Assembly (NCBI GenBank): GCA_964603065.1
Contig: CAZRTL010000005.1
Location: 4,700-68,699, forward strand
Direction of reading: 5' to 3'
DNA from: Candidatus Woesearchaeota archaeon
GTDB lineage: Archaea; Nanobdellota; Nanobdellia; SCGC-AAA011-G17; PNOQ01
Length of the DNA: 64,000 bases
The position numbers and the translations under genes are program-made. The notes under the pieces are model-generated. The model was not told where the DNA came from. It saw only the letters and a list, made by a program, of their open reading frames with translations, and searched no databases. Each line of letters opens with the position of its first letter. Positions within the stretch are counted from its first letter, which is position 1. Below, one piece after another: positions 10,199 to 26,201 of this stretch.

Positions 10199-10417
10199 AT
10201 GGCAACAACAATACAGGTCAGTCAAGAACTAAAAGATAAGTTATCCTTTCGAAAAGCATCTGAAAAAGATAGTTATGAAGAGGTCATTTGGGATTTATTA
10301 GAAGATACAATGGAATTAAACGACCAAACAAAAAAAGAAATTGAGATTGCAAGGAAAGAATTTAAACAAGGTAAATTTGTAACACACTCTCAATTAAAAA
10401 AAGAATTGGGATTATAA
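10199..10417 (+). CDS. putative antitoxin (small RHH/Phd-like partner of RelE)
   Basis: 72-aa ORF directly abutting the RelE/ParE gene (stop/start adjacent). Confidence 0.45.
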   Translation: MATTIQVSQELKDKLSFRKASEKDSYEEVIWDLLEDTMELNDQTKKEIEIARKEFKQGKFVTHSQLKKELGL

Positions 10418-10666
10418 ATGTATGAAATAAATTACTCTAATTCTGCAAGAAAATTTCTTAAAAAATTACCAAAAGAGAAACAAAAACATATTTTATCAGT
10501 TTTAGAAAGGTCAAGGATACGACCAGAATCTCACTTTGAACGATTAGTGGGTGAAAAAATTTATAAAATAAGAGCAGGAGATTACAGAATAATTGCAGAT
10601 ATTTACAATCAAAAAATGCTAATTTTAGTAATAAAAATAGGTCACAGGAAAAATATATACAAATAA
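10418..10666 (+). CDS. relE: RelE/ParE-family type II toxin
   Basis: IYKIRAGDYRIIADIYNQKMLILVIKIGHRKNIY is the typical RelE/ParE C-terminal consensus. Confidence 0.75.
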   Translation: MYEINYSNSARKFLKKLPKEKQKHILSVLERSRIRPESHFERLVGEKIYKIRAGDYRIIADIYNQKMLILVIKIGHRKNIYK

Positions 10667-10704: not shown

Positions 10705-11379
10705 TCAAGAAATAACCGTTCCAATAAACTTTTTACCGCTCAAAACTTTCTTTAAATTACTCAAATTAGAACTAACAATAAAAGTCTTAATTTTATCCTT
10801 CTTAATCAATTTGGCAGAAACCTGATCCAAAACAAAATGTTGTCCGGCTTTATATTTAATTTTATTCGCCCTTCTCAAAAATTCATCAAAAGAAATCTCA
10901 GGAATGAACTTAGCATTCTTATTAGTAACAGGATTTTTATCATATAAACCTTTAACATTAGTAATATTAACAAAAAAATCGGCTTTCATAGCTTTAGCAA
11001 CCTCGGCCGCATTAGCATCCGAAGTCATTCCCATTCTCATCCCCAAAGCTCCACAAATAACTAAATTATTCTTCCTTAAGGCCTTTTTAACTTCATCTAA
11101 AGTTTCAGGTAATTTTTCATCAACATTAAATACTCTCCTAACAAGTCGAGCATTCATTCTAGTAGCTGCAATACCAATCAAACCATAGGCCCGATCTCCA
11201 GCTTTCAACTTAACTAAGGGAGCTATATATTTTCTAGCAGTATTCCCTCCACCTGTCAAAACTACAACTTTATTCTTCTTAGAAAATTTTTTAATCAATT
11301 TACTAAAATTCTTCAAATACTTATAATCGACATTATCAGGAATAATAACAGAACCACCTAAACTAATCACGACTTTCAT
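10705..11379 (-). CDS. pyrH: UMP kinase (archaeal amino-acid-kinase family)
   Basis: VVISLGGSV...VLTGGGNTARKYI...VNITNVKGLYDKNP. Confidence 0.7.
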   Translation of the reverse strand: MKVVISLGGSVIIPDNVDYKYLKNFSKLIKKFSKKNKVVVLTGGGNTARKYIAPLVKLKAGDRAYGLIGIAATRMNARLVRRVFNVDEKLPETLDEVKKALRKNNLVICGALGMRMGMTSDANAAEVAKAMKADFFVNITNVKGLYDKNPVTNKNAKFIPEISFDEFLRRANKIKYKAGQHFVLDQVSAKLIKKDKIKTFIVSSNLSNLKKVLSGKKFIGTVIS

Positions 11380-11669: not shown

Positions 11670-12665
11670 ATGATTATAGGAATAACTGGCTATTACAGCT
11701 CTGGAAAGGATTCTGTAGCAGAATATTTAGTTAAAAGGAGTTTCATCCATTACTCTTTGTCCAACGAAATACGTGAAGAATCCAAAAAAAGAAAAATAAA
11801 AATTACAAGAGAAAATTTAATCAAACTGGGAAATGAATTAAGAAAAAAAGAAGGTCCAAATGTCCTAGCAAAAAGAGCCATAAAAAAAATAGACACGGCA
11901 AGACACCATGTAGTGACCTCAATTAGAAATAAAAATGAAGTTCTAGCTCTAAAAGAATTAGATGACTTCCTCTTGGTTTACGTTAGGGCACCTATAGAAA
12001 AAAGATTTGAAAGATTAAAATCAAGAAATAGGGAAGAAGATCCAAAAAGCATAGAAGAATTAAAGCAAAAAGAATTACAGGAACAATCTAAAGATATAGA
12101 ACAACAACAATTACATCTAGCAGTGAAAATGGCAGATGTTACAATAAATAATGATGGATCAATAGAAGATTTACAAAAAAAGCTAGAAAAATTTTTACAA
12201 GATTGGTGGCCAAAATTATGTAAGGGAAGACCAAATTGGGATGGATATTTTATGAACATTGCTCATGAAGTAGCAAAACGTTCCAATTGCATGAAGCGTC
12301 ACACCGCTGCCATAATAGTAAAGGACAAAAGAATTATATCCACTGGGTATAATGGAACTCCGAAAGGATTAAAAAATTGTAATGAAGGTGGATGTGAAAG
12401 ATGCAATTCTTTTGAACTAACCGGAGAAAGATTAAGAGAATGTATTTGTTCACACGCTGAAGAAAATTCAATAGTTCAAGCAGCATATCATGGAATAAGT
12501 ATAAAAAATTCAACATTGTACACAACTCAATCTCCATGTACCTCTTGCGCAAAAATGATAATAAATTCTGGGATAACTGAAGTAATCTGTAACGACCAAT
12601 ATCCAATGGATAAGGGTGCTGGAAAATTATTGAAAAAATCTCACGTGAAATTTAGATTTCTCTAA
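11670..12665 (+). CDS. fusion: P-loop (d)NMP/dephospho-CoA-kinase-like domain + dCMP/cytidine deaminase domain
   Basis: N-terminal IGITGYYSSGKDS Walker A; C-terminal CICSHAEENSI...SPCTSCAKMIINSGI zinc-deaminase signature (H-A-E...PC..C). Confidence 0.75.
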   Translation: MIIGITGYYSSGKDSVAEYLVKRSFIHYSLSNEIREESKKRKIKITRENLIKLGNELRKKEGPNVLAKRAIKKIDTARHHVVTSIRNKNEVLALKELDDFLLVYVRAPIEKRFERLKSRNREEDPKSIEELKQKELQEQSKDIEQQQLHLAVKMADVTINNDGSIEDLQKKLEKFLQDWWPKLCKGRPNWDGYFMNIAHEVAKRSNCMKRHTAAIIVKDKRIISTGYNGTPKGLKNCNEGGCERCNSFELTGERLRECICSHAEENSIVQAAYHGISIKNSTLYTTQSPCTSCAKMIINSGITEVICNDQYPMDKGAGKLLKKSHVKFRFL

Positions 12666-16780: not shown

Positions 16781-17059
16781 TCATTTATCATCAACTGTAA
16801 ACAGTCTAGAATCATGAACATCGAATATCTTTGCTCTTGCTCCAGCATCTAACCAACCATGGGCGTAATTTAAGGCTGCAAAGGCATTAACTAAATCTCC
16901 CTTCTCAAAAAAATGTCTTGCATCAGAAATATATCTAGAAATCATATCTAAAAAATCCTCCCCCAATTTCTTATCAGCAATGTTCTCCTTAGCCATTTCA
17001 TAAGCTTCTTCTGAGACTGAAAAATATTTTTCAACTTTTTCTTTAGTGATTTCCTTCAT
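16781..17059 (-). CDS. hypothetical protein; the track ORF extends to 17230, but internal Met 17059 avoids overlap with the opposite gene
   Basis: ORF; the longer start overlaps the ThyX-like gene by 106 nt. Confidence 0.3.
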   Translation of the reverse strand: MKEITKEKVEKYFSVSEEAYEMAKENIADKKLGEDFLDMISRYISDARHFFEKGDLVNAFAALNYAHGWLDAGARAKIFDVHDSRLFTVDDK

Positions 17060-17124
17060 ATATATCAAAAAATATACATCGCTTATAAATATATCTATAT
17101 AAATAAATTTAGATTCCCACGTTA

Positions 17125-18708
17125 ATGGAAACTCCATTTCTATCACCCGAACCAACAGTAAAATTACTCCATGCGCTTTCTTATAATCCCCAAAGTAATA
17201 CTCGTGCGGCTGCAAAAACTTGTTATTCACCCAAATTACTCACGGAAGAAGGATTTCAAAAAAGATTAGAAAATGCAAATGAGCAGGAAAGAATAATTCT
17301 ACTTGAAGATATGGACAGATTAATCAACGATTTATATGATTCTGGCCACCATACAACTCTCGAACATAATGTTTTCCAATTTGCATTAACTCAGACTTCA
17401 AGGGCAGCAATTCATTCATTTTTACATTCTCACCCATTTTACAACTCGGAACAACAAAGCCAAAGGTTTGCTCCAATAGACACAGAATCTTTTACAATCC
17501 CAAATATGTCTGAAAAAAACTTAGGAATATACCAAGGGACTTTAGATCTACAAATAGAAACATTTGAAAGATTACAAGATATTTTATTTTCTGGGGCAAA
17601 AGATGCATATCAAAAAATCTTCAAAAAGAGAGATCCAGAAAAACATAAAAAAGATATTGCAAAAAAGGCCCAAGAGATAGCAAGATATGTTCTTCCCATA
17701 GCAATGCATTCAAAATTGCATCACACAATAAACGAAATGACTCTCTTAAGAATGCATAGATTATCTCAACAACCAGATTTCCCACTAGAACAAAAACTAA
17801 TAGTCGAAGGAATGATGTCTGCATTAGAAGAAAACCAAATAGAACTAGGATCTATAGTGGAAGATTCGATAAATGAAACGGATATGCTAGAATATTCTCT
17901 AAGGGAATTACATAGGGGCCAAGTTTCAACAGAAGAATTTTTCAGAGAATTTGATAATTCCTTAAATGGAAGAAGATCTATTCTAGATGGCCATTATACA
18001 AATTCAGAATCCCTTTTAGCAAATACTGTAAGAGGAATAGTAGGAATTCCAACAAATGAACTGTCTGATGAAAAAGCAATAGCTTTGGTCTTAGATTCAA
18101 ATAATAATTCTTACCTATCAGAAAAAATGAATTTAAACTACCATTCTAAGATAATGAAAGCCTTACTCACAATTAATTATACTTTCAAAAAGAAATTAAG
18201 TCACACAGCAGACTCACAAAGCCAAAGACATAGAACGATGCCCGGAGCATACCCCATTTTAGGCCTAAACATAGGGGAAGAACCTGATGTAGTCATTCCT
18301 TCCCTAATAGAATCGAACCAAGAAGCTCTTGACTTATTTATGGAAACAAATCAAGAAACATGGAAAAATATTCAAAAACTAACAGAAAACGGAGTTCCAA
18401 CAGAACAAGTACTTTATTTATTACCAAATGCAAAAGCAATAAGAAAATGGGAATCTGGTTCATTAGTGGGGCTATTACATAAACAAAACAAAAGATTATG
18501 TTATAATTCACAAGAAGAAATTTGGAGAATCGCTCAAGATGAAGCCAACGCAATAAAAAAAGTACATCCAGAAATCGGAAAATATTTCGGAGCACCATGC
18601 GATTTAAGGTCTGTTGGAAATGTAAAACCTTATTGCTCAGAAGGACCAAGATTTTGTGGAGTACCGGTATGGAAAATACCTGAAGAAGAAAGAGAAAGAG
18701 TGATATAA
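17125..18708 (+). CDS. ThyX (Thy1)-homologous protein, 527 aa, divergent motifs
   Basis: GHHTTLEHNVFQF...SRAAIHSFLHSHPFYNSEQQSQRF aligns to the ThyX HETPFEH...RQWFRHRIASYNELSGRY region; a second SQSQRHR stretch follows later. Confidence 0.5.
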   Translation: METPFLSPEPTVKLLHALSYNPQSNTRAAAKTCYSPKLLTEEGFQKRLENANEQERIILLEDMDRLINDLYDSGHHTTLEHNVFQFALTQTSRAAIHSFLHSHPFYNSEQQSQRFAPIDTESFTIPNMSEKNLGIYQGTLDLQIETFERLQDILFSGAKDAYQKIFKKRDPEKHKKDIAKKAQEIARYVLPIAMHSKLHHTINEMTLLRMHRLSQQPDFPLEQKLIVEGMMSALEENQIELGSIVEDSINETDMLEYSLRELHRGQVSTEEFFREFDNSLNGRRSILDGHYTNSESLLANTVRGIVGIPTNELSDEKAIALVLDSNNNSYLSEKMNLNYHSKIMKALLTINYTFKKKLSHTADSQSQRHRTMPGAYPILGLNIGEEPDVVIPSLIESNQEALDLFMETNQETWKNIQKLTENGVPTEQVLYLLPNAKAIRKWESGSLVGLLHKQNKRLCYNSQEEIWRIAQDEANAIKKVHPEIGKYFGAPCDLRSVGNVKPYCSEGPRFCGVPVWKIPEEERERVI

Positions 18709-18709
18709 A

Positions 18710-19327
18710 ATGTCAAAATTTATAGTATTTGAAGGAATAGATGGATCAGGAAAAACAACGCAGATGCTCAAAACCATCGATTTGTTAAAAGATCACAAAA
18801 CATTATTCGTTACAAAAGAACCTTCTACACTAAAAACTGGAAAATATATTAAAAAACTACTAAAGGAAGACCAAGATCCAAAAGCAAACGCAGAAAAATA
18901 TGTAAAATTATACACTAAAGATAGAGCAGAACACAACAAAATAATTCTTAAACAGTTAAATCAAAACCATACTGTGATTTGTGATAGATATTATTACACA
19001 ACTATAGCTTATCAACAACTTCAAGGATATAATGTAAAAAAAATAATAAATCAATCTAGAAAATTTTTGGTTCCAGATTTAACATTTATAATTGATATAC
19101 CAATAAAAACCGCATTAGAAAGATTGAAAGCAAGAGGTAAAAAAACAGAAAAATTTGAAAAACAAAAATTCTTAGAAGAAGCTAGAAAATTATATCTAAA
19201 AATGCCGTACTATGGAAAAATATTGGATAGAAACTCGGATAGAAAAGAAAACATAATAATTATAGATGGCAACCACAAACCAGAAAAAGTTTTTGAACAA
19301 ATAAAAGAAGAACTGAAAAAGCTATAA
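18710..19327 (+). CDS. tmk: thymidylate kinase
   Basis: FIVFEGIDGSGKTTQ P-loop and Tmk length. Confidence 0.85.
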   Translation: MSKFIVFEGIDGSGKTTQMLKTIDLLKDHKTLFVTKEPSTLKTGKYIKKLLKEDQDPKANAEKYVKLYTKDRAEHNKIILKQLNQNHTVICDRYYYTTIAYQQLQGYNVKKIINQSRKFLVPDLTFIIDIPIKTALERLKARGKKTEKFEKQKFLEEARKLYLKMPYYGKILDRNSDRKENIIIIDGNHKPEKVFEQIKEELKKL

Positions 19328-21314: not shown

Positions 21315-22457
21315 CTATTTCAACTTCCTAATCTTCTCTAACTCTTCATTAAAAATCTTAACTTCTTCCAAAGTGTTATACAAATAAAAACTAGCCCGAG
21401 CACTACCCTTAATTTGCCTAGAATTATACCAAGAGTGAGCACAATGCATACCGCTCCTAATCATAATGTTCTTACTATGGTCTAATAAACCAGCAACCTC
21501 ATGAAAATCAATTTTAGGGATATTAAAATTAAATATTCCTCTCTCACCCTTAAAACCAATTTCCTTAATTTTATCTTTATCAACAGCTTTAACTAACTTT
21601 TTCTCATGATCTTCAATATTAGACATACCAACCTTACTCAAAAATTTAACCGCCTCTCCAAAGCCTAAAATCCCAGAATAATTCTGCAATCCTGCTTCAA
21701 ATCTATGAGGCAAACTCTCCAAAACATAACTATCATAACTACTATCCGAAACGGTTTCTCCACCAATCAAAAAAGGCTTCATATCATCCAAAATCTTTTC
21801 TTTAACATACATAGCCCCAGTTCCAGTAGGACCCAACATTTTATGTCCAGAGAAAGTTAAAAAGTCAACATCTAATTTTTTAACATTAATTTCTTTATGG
21901 GGAGCAGCTTGTGCAGCATCAAAATGAACTTTCGCTTTATTCTCATGCGCTATCTTAACTATTTCCCTAACTGGCAAAGTGTATCCATCAATATTACTTG
22001 TATAAACAAAACTAACCATATCATAATTTTTAATCGCCTCAGAAAATTTTTCTAAATCAAAAGTATAATCTTCTTTACTCCTCAAAACTCCATATTTGAA
22101 TTTTTGCCAAGGTAGTAAGTTAGAATTATGTTCTCTGTCTGTAAGTAAAACTTTATCAAACTTAAATGAATTAGACAATAAATTTATACTTTCACTAGTG
22201 TTTTTTGAAAAAACAATTTCACTTGATTTCTTTGCTCCAATAAATTTCTGAATTAATTTTCTAGCGTTATCCATCTCGCCATCTAATTTCAAACCAAACT
22301 TATGAACACTTCTACCTGAACAAACAGGATACTCACTGTAATATTCATTGATCTTATCTATAACTTGTTTAGGCCTCAAAGACATACATGCACTATCTAA
22401 ATATACTATATTCTTTTTCAAAATTGGAAAGTTCTCTCTTATTTTTTCAACATTCAT
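21315..22457 (-). CDS. cysteine desulfurase (class V aminotransferase, SufS/Csd type)
   Basis: FSGHKMLGPTGTGAMYV PLP-lysine region and IRSGMHCA catalytic Cys loop. Confidence 0.85.
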   Translation of the reverse strand: MNVEKIRENFPILKKNIVYLDSACMSLRPKQVIDKINEYYSEYPVCSGRSVHKFGLKLDGEMDNARKLIQKFIGAKKSSEIVFSKNTSESINLLSNSFKFDKVLLTDREHNSNLLPWQKFKYGVLRSKEDYTFDLEKFSEAIKNYDMVSFVYTSNIDGYTLPVREIVKIAHENKAKVHFDAAQAAPHKEINVKKLDVDFLTFSGHKMLGPTGTGAMYVKEKILDDMKPFLIGGETVSDSSYDSYVLESLPHRFEAGLQNYSGILGFGEAVKFLSKVGMSNIEDHEKKLVKAVDKDKIKEIGFKGERGIFNFNIPKIDFHEVAGLLDHSKNIMIRSGMHCAHSWYNSRQIKGSARASFYLYNTLEEVKIFNEELEKIRKLK

Positions 22458-22921
22458 TCTTTACACTCTCCACAACTACAGTCATCTCCACAAATTTCAC
22501 ACTGTCCAGAATCACATAAAGGATCCCCACAATCTACTGGCTCTGCATTAGGTGTAAATATACAAGTTTCAGGATCTGCATTTGGGCCATTACAATTGTC
22601 ATAAATAGCTAAATTATAAACTGCTTGAGCGGAAAAAAACAAACTCACAAAAAATAAAACAACAAACAGCCACGAAACAACCTCAAAATATTTATACACA
22701 GGCTTAGCTAAACCAGAATTTTTTCTCATCAAAGTTCCAACTAATTTAGATTTTAACTTCACATCTAAACCAGATTGGCATTTTCTAAGAGTAATCCTTC
22801 TAAAAACACAATCGAATGCCTCTTTTGCTATTGGCCTATGGCTAGCCGAAAAAATAGCCATAATTCCAAAAACAATCATTGCAATTAAACAAATCATGGA
22901 GTTTACAAAAATGATGGTCAT
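22454..22921 (-). CDS. membrane protein with a Cys-rich C-terminal tail
   Basis: Two to three TM segments plus CGDPLCDSGQCEICGDDCSCGECKE; ATGA overlap with the desulfurase start. Confidence 0.45.
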   Translation of the reverse strand: MTIIFVNSMICLIAMIVFGIMAIFSASHRPIAKEAFDCVFRRITLRKCQSGLDVKLKSKLVGTLMRKNSGLAKPVYKYFEVVSWLFVVLFFVSLFFSAQAVYNLAIYDNCNGPNADPETCIFTPNAEPVDCGDPLCDSGQCEICGDDCSCGECKE

Positions 22922-25175: not shown

Positions 25176-26201
25176 TTGATTTATATGAAAATTAAATACT
25201 CTGACTTTGTTAAAACTTACTCTAAAATACATAGGAATTCCATCTATTACCCAAAAGTTATGAAATTTCATGATAAAGGCCTTAAAGTTAAAAATATTTC
25301 CAAAAAACTAAATTTACCATATCTTCTTGTCTGGAGATGGGTAAATAACAAAACCATTCCTCATTCATATTTAGAATATTCAAAAATTAAGAAAAAATTT
25401 AATTCTAAAGAGATAAAAAATCTCGCTAAAGTAATGGGATATATTTATGGAGATGGAGGAATATTAAAAAATGGAAGGATTCATTACTGTAATACTGAGA
25501 AATTCTTAATAAGTGACTTCATAAAATCAGTAAACAAAGTATTTGCACAAAATCCACATATTAAAAAAGAGTCAAAAATATTCCGTGTTAAGTTCTCTGC
25601 GATAATGGGTAAAACCTTGTGGTGACTATTTGGAAAATTTAGTTATGGCAAAGACACTAAAAAAGTTACTGAACAAATAAAGAAGATGCCTTTAGAGTGG
25701 AAAGCAAATATGTTACAAACCTGGTTCAATGACGATGGTAGCGTACCAAATTATGGTGTGATCGCAATTAAACAAAAACCCAAACACTTGATTGAATTCA
25801 TACAAACTACATTAATGGAATTTAATATAAAATCAATAGTATCCAGAGATGGAGATACGTGGCTTCTAAGAATATGTAGCTACTTGGATTTAAAAAAATT
25901 TCAAGAAAAAATTAATTTTACAAAGGGATACAGAAAAAGAGAATTATTAGAAAAAACCATCTCAGAAAAGAAAAATCCTACAAATGTTACAAAAAATAAA
26001 ATATTGGAATTATTGCAAAACTCTCCAAGAACTCTAAAAGAGCTACAATACAATTTAAGTATAAACAGAAATGTCATATATGGGCACCTTCATGGATGGA
26101 AAAGAAAAAGCAAAAACAAGAAAAGTACACTAGGATTAGTCGATTTAAACTTAATAGGGGTCAAAGGAAAGGGTAAAGATAAAATTTTTTACATAAAATA
26201 A
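25176..26201 (+). pseudogene. LAGLIDADG homing-endonuclease-like gene interrupted by an in-frame TGA (25626-25628)
   Basis: Two LAGLIDADG-type motifs (MGYIYGDGGI; LQTWFNDDGSV) in the same frame, separated by a single TGA; C-terminal HTH-like tail. Confidence 0.55.

Follow-up and report, generated by a model that had tools for sequence, protein, structure and literature searches.

A long-form, two-domain ThyX encoded directly upstream of tmk in a Candidatus Woesearchaeota archaeon

The window analyzed here, a 64-kb stretch of DNA from a Candidatus Woesearchaeota archaeon, encodes a 527-residue protein in which two Thy1 domains are fused in tandem. It belongs to the long, two-domain form of ThyX, and its sequence features make it very probably a functional flavin-dependent thymidylate synthase; in this subfamily, duplication and fusion would have been accompanied by complementary degeneration of the two domains. 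Judged by sequence, the gene is an ordinary member of a large, annotated family of double-length ThyX proteins; since the seemingly missing RHR motif lies in the second fused domain in this family, its product almost certainly works as a dTMP synthase. The gene, its parts and the adjoining gene are as follows.

17125-18708, + strand: long-form (two-domain) thyX, 527 aa; an ATG-to-TAA open reading frame with PF02511 and TIGR02170 matches
17125-17883, + strand: ThyX domain 1, aa 1-253; 96.5 bits on Thy1 alone
17884-18570, + strand: ThyX domain 2, aa 254 to about 482; 58.5 bits on Thy1 alone, profile positions 52-191
18571-18705, + strand: C-terminal extension not present in single-domain ThyX, with C492, C504, C511, R495, PEG/CG motifs and W516
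18710-19327, + strand: tmk (dTMP kinase); TIGR00041 141 bits, PF02223 E=6e-38

A preliminary description of this DNA had proposed a ThyX-like protein here, and the open reading frame proved to be real: the segments GHHTTLEHNVFQF and SRAAIHSFLHSHPFYNSEQQSQRF are present in it and align to the ThyX core of Pfam, TIGR02170 and PDB ThyX chains. The profile alignment that the description had suggested gave a match to Pfam PF02511 (Thy1) with E=8e-44 and 150.1 bits (cutoff 24.8) in two stretches, and the N- and C-terminal halves each passed this cutoff separately (96.5 and 58.5 bits, respectively). The score against the TIGR02170 thyX equivalog was 103 bits, above the cutoff of 87.9. Additionally, an AlphaFold model of the protein (pLDDT 84.8, pTM 0.87) was compared with the PDB using Foldseek, and every significant match was a ThyX, with target-normalized TM values of 0.6-0.74 over ~220 columns, at an identity to the solved ThyX structures of ~15-18%. 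The protein thus belongs to the ThyX family by both family HMM and fold. Of the structural check suggested earlier, the fold was borne out by the model, and the geometry of the pockets is predicted by homology. Three metagenomic contigs carry a protein identical to this one.

The double length had been regarded as an anomaly; instead, it is the hallmark of a very large subfamily that was already known. Its members are about 510-545 aa long and annotated as 'FAD-dependent thymidylate synthase'. One homolog search returned more than 6000 matches of 515-545 aa; another count gave at least 589 species, and there are 239 cluster representatives at E<=1e-30. Long-form ThyX was found in many bacterial phyla, several archaeal groups and phages, and cultured Leptospira species carry it with all motifs. 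The bacterial proteins (Leptospira, Kryptonia, Acidobacteriota, Chloroflexota, Omnitrophota and Patescibacteria) and the archaeal ones (Woesearchaeota, Thermoplasmatota and Nitrososphaerota MAGs) are collinear with the window protein over their full length, at 29-74% identity, and they have in common with it the motifs LHxHPFYNSEQxSQRY, SQxQR[HQ]R, RxCxxxQEE and Cx(11-16)Cx6CG. The window protein shows every feature of the subfamily, namely its length, two Thy1 domains, complementary catalytic residues, cysteines and extension. For a more distant protein, the Microcystis phage LMM01 'thymidylate synthase' (491 aa), the structural alignment spanned both domains (529 columns, E=3e-10), but with only 15% identity and a poor global superposition (TM 0.46-0.49); this two-domain ThyX may represent an independent or very divergent duplication. 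A domain duplication of ThyX in Chloroflexi was noted in 2009, and the non-Dehalococcoides Chloroflexi possess the duplicated ThyX only (PMC3224940), an argument that it is essential there.

Conservation was assessed in an alignment of 105 diverse sequences with identities as low as 29%. No more than 30 positions are conserved in at least 95% of this set, and they comprise the split catalytic set and five cysteines. Domain 1, whose profile matched T. maritima (Tm) ThyX with E=1e-11, has no RHR motif and contains L100-H101-S102-H103 (nt 17422-17433) in its place. HMMER sets L100-H101-S102 on Tm R78-H79-R80, one residue off the HSH register of the preliminary description, and both arginines are missing in either register. 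The replacement of RHR by HSH proposed there therefore holds for domain 1, which lacks both arginines, but not for the whole protein, as RHR is kept in domain 2. Nor is HSH an oddity of this protein, since LHSHPFYNSEQxSQR[YF] is found family-wide. Domain 1 keeps H75 (Tm H53), T77, H81, R93, N107, E184 and R187 (Tm R147), together with the active-site loop S112-Q113-R114-F115 (nt 17458-17469), which corresponds to Tm S88-G89-R90-Y91, and C33 occupies the position of Tm S30. The retained residues are at least 95% conserved among the 105 sequences; H75 and R187 are present in all of them (105/105 each), and S112 and R114 are invariant. Position 115 is Phe in the window protein, and Tyr in 94/105 and Phe in 8/105 sequences of the alignment; mutation of the corresponding Y91 in T. 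maritima slowed flavin oxidation ~1000-fold. Inteins sit exactly in the FYN|SEQ loop of domain 1 in two representatives, and intein insertion is typical of functionally critical sites.

In domain 2, R368-H369-R370 (nt 18226-18234) lies in exact register with Tm R78-H79-R80. The hhalign comparison of the C-terminal half with Tm ThyX (prob 79%, E=1.7e-5) set RHR on RHR, as did phmmer with C. glutamicum ThyX, and the phmmer alignments to 3ge9 and 6j61 agree; the Tm reference sequence was checked and is 100% identical to 1kq4. This register also fits the strand-helix pattern of the AlphaFold model and the spacing from the F-T-F strand before it, which is free of gaps. BLASTP found no match between the two halves, and hhalign in local mode aligned them with E=0.0098 and a prob of 4%; the register of that local alignment, with 'QRH' of the C-terminal half on 'QRY' of the N-terminal half, was rejected, as RHR falls on RHR in three independent alignments with canonical ThyX. 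Domain 2 also keeps Q365 (Tm Q75), R457 (Tm R174, nt 18493-18495) and C459. R368 and R370 occur in all 105 sequences, Q365 in 104/105 and R457 in 103/105, and position 369 is His in 98 and Gln in 6 of the 105. The S88/R90/Y91 loop and R147 are absent from domain 2, with Y431 in place of the latter, and S375 and R376 are not conserved in the 105 sequences. As RHR lies in domain 2 and the serine (S112) in domain 1, the RHRx7S motif is not contiguous in cis and is present only across the domains.

We compared the window protein with the canonical homotetrameric ThyX enzymes (T. maritima TM0449, 1O26/1KQ4; M. tuberculosis; PBCV-1). The same fold is present in both halves, the inventory of H53, Q75, R78-H79-R80, S88, R90, Y91 (Phe here), R147 and R174 is shared, and the same chemistry is predicted, in which dUMP, CH2-H4folate and NAD(P)H would yield dTMP and H4folate. 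In contrast, canonical ThyX has one domain per chain and carries a whole RHRx7S motif, whereas the window protein has two diverged domains in one chain, neither of which carries the whole motif, its residues being split between them. In M. tuberculosis ThyX, the residues that bind dUMP are Arg95A and Arg199A together with Arg87C, Ser105C, Arg107C and the Tyr108C lid (PMC6514825). In Tm numbering, R78 stabilizes FADH-, and H53 comes from 'monomer-3' (PMC11940539); R174 activates uracil (PMC8316439). Since the two sets of residues come from different subunits in canonical ThyX, we infer that a pair of N- and C-terminal domains rebuilds one intact site. Duplication and fusion of an ancestral thyX would have been followed by complementary degeneration of its two domains. 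Domain 2 would have kept the share of one subunit, namely Q75, R78-H79-R80 (contacting flavin N1/O2 and the dUMP phosphate) and R174 (uracil activation), and domain 1 would have kept the share of the partner subunits, namely the mobile loop S88/R90/Y91, the phosphate-binding arginines (R147 and an Arg of the Mtb R87 type) and the folate/flavin-stacking H53. The meeting of domain 1 and domain 2 residues in one pocket is expected from homology to the canonical tetramer. Each pair of domains would form one complete active site, its other site being dead, and a dimer of 527-residue chains would resemble the canonical tetramer but have two sites, not four, as the split of catalytic residues leaves half as many sites per pseudo-tetramer. 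The quaternary arrangement, the number of active sites and the activity are thus predictions from sequence.

A functional synthase could also have another architecture, in which both sites bind ligands and the RHR-less one is regulatory or binds NADPH, or in which four 527-residue chains form a tetramer with four sites. H101, R209 and further domain 1 residues around the degenerate site do not vary in the 105 sequences, which hints at a kept function. However, that site lacks the RHR arginines, the S88/R90 loop of domain 2 and a conserved R174 equivalent (the corresponding place in domain 1, position 212/214, is variable), and we consider such an architecture very unlikely. The ThyX of Chlamydia trachomatis (CT632) has been experimentally characterized and reported to be functional, and it serves as a positive control for complementation. 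We take this protein to be ~529 aa and likewise double-length; it is reportedly a tetramer, which would be a point for four sites. Literature look-ups for the sequence or length of the Chlamydia ThyX found none, and Chlamydiae were absent from the results of cluster-name look-ups and of a homolog search started from a distant member, which yielded Patescibacteria, Acidobacteriota, archaea and Leptospira.

Canonical ThyX has no counterpart of the cysteine-bearing C-terminal extension. C492, C504 and C511 (nt 18598-18600, 18634-18636 and 18655-18657) are invariant features of this extension. Including C33 and C459, the five cysteines are each present in 103-104 of the 105 sequences, and all five are found in the window protein; C459, C492, C504 and C511 are each kept in 103/105, down to 29% identity. 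The five cysteines and the extension are also found in Leptospira and a Thermoplasmatota member. A Pfam search with the extension alone gave no match, and the pLDDT of the model is lower in this region (63-77). C459, two residues past R457, the equivalent of catalytic R174, may form a Cys4 metal site with C492, C504 and C511. We tentatively suggest, as a possibility that we hold to be less probable than its opposite, that long-form ThyX is an obligate 'half-of-sites' pseudo-tetramer in which the four domain 2 cysteines may bind Zn or Fe-S, and the metal would staple the extension to the catalytic helix or give electrons a second way to the flavin. The fifth invariant cysteine, C33, replaces the flavin-O4-binding Ser30. 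The 2009 remark on Chloroflexi was all that literature searches for Fe-S or zinc in ThyX, or for a tandem or duplicated ThyX, brought up, and no paper was found that describes a half-of-sites arrangement, the domain 2 cysteines or C33.

The five invariant cysteines and the extension, together with the absence of RHR from domain 1 and the Phe in place of Tyr91, could also point to a ThyX fold repurposed for another reaction, for instance one that methylates or hydroxymethylates a different pyrimidine nucleotide, or that of a flavin reductase or NAD(P)H oxidase with a Cys cluster. ThyX homologs with altered substrates are known in nucleoside-antibiotic pathways, and the literature mentions thymidylate synthase homologs in antibiotic and phage-nucleotide biosynthesis. 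Such repurposing is nevertheless very unlikely, as the canonical dUMP-, flavin- and folate-contact residues are all kept in the chain as its most conserved positions, the TIGR02170 equivalog threshold is passed, the long form is the sole ThyX of whole phyla without ThyA, and thyX shares a probable operon with a dTMP kinase gene. The preliminary description had left the choice between a diverged but functional synthase and a repurposed fold; the retained catalytic residues, the annotation of the family as ThyX, its role as the ThyX of cultured bacteria and the tmk operon favor the functional synthase.

In addition to tmk, two genes of nucleotide metabolism lie upstream of thyX in the window.

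11670-12665, + strand: fusion of a P-loop kinase-like domain and a dCMP/cytidine deaminase; PF00383 E=2e-23, AAA_17/18
10705-11379, - strand: amino-acid-kinase family protein (UMP-kinase/PyrH-like); PF00696 E=4e-28

Both the position of thyX directly upstream of tmk and the nearby dCMP-deaminase fusion had been described correctly. The tmk start is 1 nt past the thyX stop (junction ...ATATAAAATG...), and the two genes are probably co-transcribed. The window protein sits in a small marine archaeal clade (P0001-P0005), and the adjacency of thyX and tmk is kept in P0002 (same strand) and P0004 (convergent). Across the family, it was found in the archaeal clade only, with thyX and tmk within 4 kb of each other at two Ignavibacteriales loci; as the adjacency is clade-specific, it was rejected as family-wide functional evidence. 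The deaminase fusion is syntenic in the P0004 contig, and the PyrH-like gene is found at the equivalent place on the contigs of P0002 and P0004, where it adjoins a cytidylate-kinase-like gene, so that the order cmk-like/pyrH-like/deaminase/thyX/tmk is kept in archaeal relatives. The fusion matched the PADLOC dCTPase profile with E=1.5e-58, covering profile positions 155-399 of 630, and scored 148.6 bits against NF041025, below the cutoff of 400, so it was not classified as an anti-phage dCTP deaminase. It is homologous to anti-phage dCTP deaminases. The deaminase fusion is the probable source of dUMP, and the dTMP produced would pass to the co-transcribed dTMP kinase. The suggested search for another thyA or thyX found none within the 64-kb window, and the active-site residues of the present protein are conserved.

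In the P0001-P0005 clade, the lid Tyr is replaced by Phe, and RHR is followed by A/I-Y where most of the close bacterial members have S-R. A compensation of Y115F by R376Y was considered and found to be unsupported: the pairing occurs in one clade, S375/R376 is unconserved and F115 is present in 8/105 sequences. The lineage-specific changes W97H, Y115F, R345K, S375A and R376Y, at positions that are near-invariant in the closer relatives, could be taken as signs of an inactive relic or pseudoenzyme with dTMP supplied by salvage, and DPANN-type archaea are often host-dependent for nucleotides. We regard this as extremely unlikely: the open reading frame is intact, relatives at 59-74% identity keep all catalytic residues, the changed positions vary in the wider family, and the tight coupling to tmk and the kept synteny argue for use.

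The functional two-domain synthase thus favored is not in itself unusual, as it is of a known kind and belongs to an already annotated family; only the five invariant cysteines, four of them possibly a metal site, and the missing solved two-domain structure are under-described. For this low-GC, DPANN-like archaeon, the genes suggest a de novo dTMP route from the deaminase through ThyX to Tmk, the dUMP step being probable. For the family, they offer a residue-level picture of how a homotetramer with inter-subunit sites may become a two-domain enzyme via duplication, fusion and complementary degeneration. The invariant cysteines are flagged here in a very widespread ThyX subfamily that includes pathogenic Leptospira, and since ThyX is an antibacterial target, these features are worth structural and metal-analysis study.

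The open reading frame at 17125-18708 (+) encoded 527 residues, as the preliminary description had stated, and the peptide segments quoted there were found in it; the frame ran from an ATG start to a TAA stop, and the G+C content of the window was approximately 30%. The profile alignment to Pfam Thy1 (PF02511) that it had proposed gave a match in two stretches (E=8e-44), and the protein passed the NCBIfam thyX equivalog TIGR02170 with 103 bits against a cutoff of 87.9. When the protein was split, the N-half scored 96.5 bits and the C-half 58.5 bits on Thy1, each above the gathering score of 24.8. An AlphaFold model based on an input alignment of 30 sequences was confident (pLDDT 84.8, pTM 0.87), and its significant structural neighbours in the PDB were ThyX structures only, each spanning about one half of the model. 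Therefore, the protein is a tandem fusion of two ThyX domains. The strand-helix pattern was identical in both halves of the model. At the sequence level the halves were strongly diverged: BLASTP found no similarity between them, and hhalign aligned them with E=0.0098.

The half-profiles were aligned to the T. maritima ThyX (Tm) reference, whose sequence was 100% identical to PDB 1KQ4. Domain 1 matched the reference with E=1e-11, and L100-H101-S102 aligned with Tm R78-H79-R80, both arginines being gone. The further equivalences in this domain were H75=H53, T77=T55, H81=H59, N107=N85, S112=S88, R114=R90, F115=Y91 and R187=R147, and R93 corresponded to the M. tuberculosis R87-type arginine. In domain 2 (hhalign probability 79%, E=1.7e-5), R368-H369-R370 fell exactly on Tm R78-H79-R80, Q365 on Q75 and R457 on R174; Y431 stood in place of R147, and the loop after RHR was short and lacked S88/R90/Y91. 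In independent phmmer alignments of the C-half, its 'SQSQRHRTM' fell opposite 'HELVRHRHF' in C. glutamicum ThyX and its 'KRLCYNSQEEI' opposite 'LRLAPEAQWEI' in T. thermophilus ThyX. Additionally, the distance from the conserved F-T-F strand to RHR was 14 residues in both domain 2 and Tm ThyX. The reported loss of RHR thus held for domain 1 but not for the whole protein; the motif had seemed missing because the first domain was the one aligned, and the second holds the canonical RHR.

In M. tuberculosis ThyX, the residues contacting dUMP are Arg95 and Arg199 from chain A and, from chain C, Arg87, Ser105, Arg107 and the lid residue Tyr108 (PMC6514825). In Tm numbering, the chain A residues are R174 and R78, the latter being the first R of RHR, and chain C gives S88, R90 and Y91; Arg87 lies eight residues before RHR, where Tm has a non-Arg residue. 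H53 is contributed by a third monomer and R78 stabilises the reduced flavin (PMC11940539), and R174 activates the uracil (PMC8316439). All 'chain A' residues were retained in domain 2, and all 'chain C' and 'monomer-3' residues in domain 1. The simplest reading would be that ThyX was duplicated and fused and that the two domains then degenerated in a complementary manner. Each domain pair would hold one intact and one dead site, and a dimer of the long chain may imitate the canonical tetramer, with two sites.

The split catalytic set was invariant in 30 homologs and also across 83 genomic loci, which gave 81 distinct sequences. Searched exhaustively with phmmer, a database of 1.84 billion cluster representatives returned 1285 matches at E<=1e-3; of these, 528 reached E<=1e-10 and 239 reached E<=1e-30. 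In an alignment of 105 sequences, namely the window protein and 104 full-length representatives with identity down to 29%, only 30 positions were at least 95% conserved:

Domain 1: A30, C33, H75, T77, H81, S92, R93, H101, N107, Q110, S112, Q113, R114, E184, R187, Y188, R209, E222
Domain 2: S359, Q365, R368, R370, P392, R457, C459, Q463, E465, C492, C504, C511

This set is in essence the catalytic inventory of canonical ThyX with five cysteines added. The preliminary description had left open a diverged synthase or a fold repurposed for another role; the conservation pattern would be that expected if a working thymidylate synthase were under purifying selection, and it is difficult to square with a fold that is repurposed or dead. 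In 6 of the 105 sequences, Gln replaced the middle His of RHR. Two long-form representatives, P0143 (821 aa) and P0155 (840 aa), carried inteins (PF14890, 57.8 and 49.2 bits, cutoff 35.8), one with an HNH match below its cutoff (18.1 against 21.4 bits). The inteins sat exactly at the N/S junction of the invariant domain 1 active-site loop 'FYN|SEQ', equivalent to the boundary between codons N107 and S108 of the window gene (nt 17443-17448). Inteins prefer catalytically critical sites.

Compared with its closer bacterial relatives (their residues in parentheses), the window protein had H97 (W), F115 (Y), K345 (R), A375 (S) and Y376 (R). F115 occupies the Tyr91 'lid' position, the mutation of which slows flavin oxidation approximately 1000-fold in T. 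maritima. Because Phe was found there in 8 of the 105 diverse representatives, and positions 375 and 376 varied widely across the set, we regard the five deviations as probably tolerated variation.

The five cysteines were conserved like catalytic residues, in 103-104 of the 105 representatives and down to 29% identity:

17221-17223 (+), C33, at the position of T. maritima Ser30
18499-18501 (+), C459, two residues past the R174 equivalent
18598-18600, 18634-18636 and 18655-18657 (+), C492, C504 and C511, in the C-terminal extension

In the reduced dUMP complex, Ser30 of the folate loop forms a hydrogen bond with flavin O4 (PMC11940539). In contrast to single-domain ThyX, the long form has a C-terminal extension, which gave no match in a Pfam search and was modelled less confidently (pLDDT 63-77). 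Four of the five cysteines were grouped in domain 2 and the extension, beside the catalytic R174 equivalent, and this pattern makes plausible a putative Cys4 metal site for structural Zn or for an Fe-S cluster. A literature search found no description of conserved cysteines or a metal site in ThyX, and no two-domain ThyX structure was found in the PDB.

The surroundings of the gene contained the following features:

11670-12665 (+), 331-aa fusion of P-loop kinase-like and dCMP_cyt_deam_1 domains
16781-17230 (-), longest DUF357 ORF, 149 aa with a GTG start, overlapping the thyX start by 106 nt
approximately 17083-17094, TATA-like TTATAAATATAT in the AT-rich thyX upstream region, ~30-40 nt 5' of the ATG
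18710-19327 (+), tmk, directly downstream of thyX (TIGR00041, 141 bits), its ATG 1 nt after the thyX stop

Both the adjacent tmk and the upstream dCMP-deaminase fusion of the preliminary description were thereby recovered. The TATA-like element is a possible archaeal promoter. In gene calls and in relatives DUF357 is shorter (90, 92 or 118 aa), so the overlap is probably small or absent: the true divergent intergenic region would span ~20-70 nt or, if the 118-aa version is taken, give way to a 13-nt overlap. The closest homologs of the window protein (74% and 59% identity) lay on syntenic archaeal contigs, and the same protein occurred on a 262-kb marine metagenomic contig with neighbours including proteasome alpha, RNase P Rpp14 and p30, and DUF357, so the host is an archaeon, most likely a DPANN-like one. 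The neighbourhood conserved in the archaeal clade comprised cmk-like, pyrH-like, the kinase-deaminase fusion, DUF357, thyX and tmk, and is consistent with a dCMP/dCTP -> dUMP -> dTMP -> dTDP route; thyX-tmk linkage was not general in bacteria. One archaeal relative had the fusion in synteny with thyX; for another, only the kinase part was called. The fusion matched the PADLOC anti-phage dCTP-deaminase model with E=1.5e-58 over profile positions 155-399 of 630, and scored 148.6 bits on NCBIfam antiphage_deaminase, far under the cutoff of 400; it may serve either in housekeeping, as a supplier of dUMP, or in defence. The proposed search for another thyA or thyX detected none within the 64-kb window by tblastn, for which the E. 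coli ThyA query may be approximate.

Three other loci were observed in the window:

10199-10666 (+), a 72-aa ORF and, immediately after it, an 82-aa ORF of the ParE-toxin family (PF05016)
21315-22921 (-), an Aminotran_5 (cysteine-desulfurase-like) gene with a 4-nt overlap with a gene for a 155-aa membrane protein ending in a dense Cys-rich tail, CGDPLCDSGQCEICGDDCSCGECKE
25176-26201 (+), adjacent 149-aa and 171-aa ORFs, a single 338-aa call on the source contig, with a weak LAGLIDADG_3 match

The first is a probable toxin-antitoxin pair within the nucleotide-metabolism neighbourhood, and its ParE-like gene was also found on a relative's contig. The second pairing was kept in a relative's contig, and the third may represent a free-standing homing endonuclease, or else a frameshift or an alternative start.

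The double length, which had been taken as anomalous, proved ordinary: the first homolog search returned more than 6000 long-form proteins of 515-545 aa at E<=1e-5, and the two-domain form is already annotated, as 'FAD-dependent thymidylate synthase' or 'ThyX' in the sources. Long-form ThyX was encoded by at least 589 matched reference-genome stretches. The matches listed included Kryptoniota, Omnitrophota, Elusimicrobiota, Planctomycetota, Myxococcota, Acidobacteriota, Chloroflexota, Nitrospirota, Bacteroidota and others, as well as one Woesearchaeota MAG (L063); additional members came from Patescibacteria, Thermoplasmatota and Nitrososphaerota. Cultured Leptospira species encoded 524-aa proteins with every motif present, and the biochemically characterised Chlamydia trachomatis ThyX, a candidate member, has ~529 aa. 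The 'thymidylate synthase' of Microcystis phage LMM01 (BFVD A0A7D4, 491 aa) aligned over both model domains at 15% identity, so two-domain ThyX exists in viruses too, possibly by independent duplication. In 2009, Chloroflexi except Dehalococcoides were reported to hold only a domain-duplicated ThyX, 'not characterized' (PMC3224940), and COG counts recorded ThyX but no ThyA for Acidobacteria and Chlamydiae, while among 9 Chloroflexi genomes only 2 had ThyA (PMC5954106). Given such ThyX-only lineages, the long form must be the working enzyme in at least some of them. The window protein is very probably a functional long-form ThyX, a new archaeal representative of a kind already known and annotated, and the novelty left lies in the family-wide cysteine set and the half-of-sites architecture that we infer.
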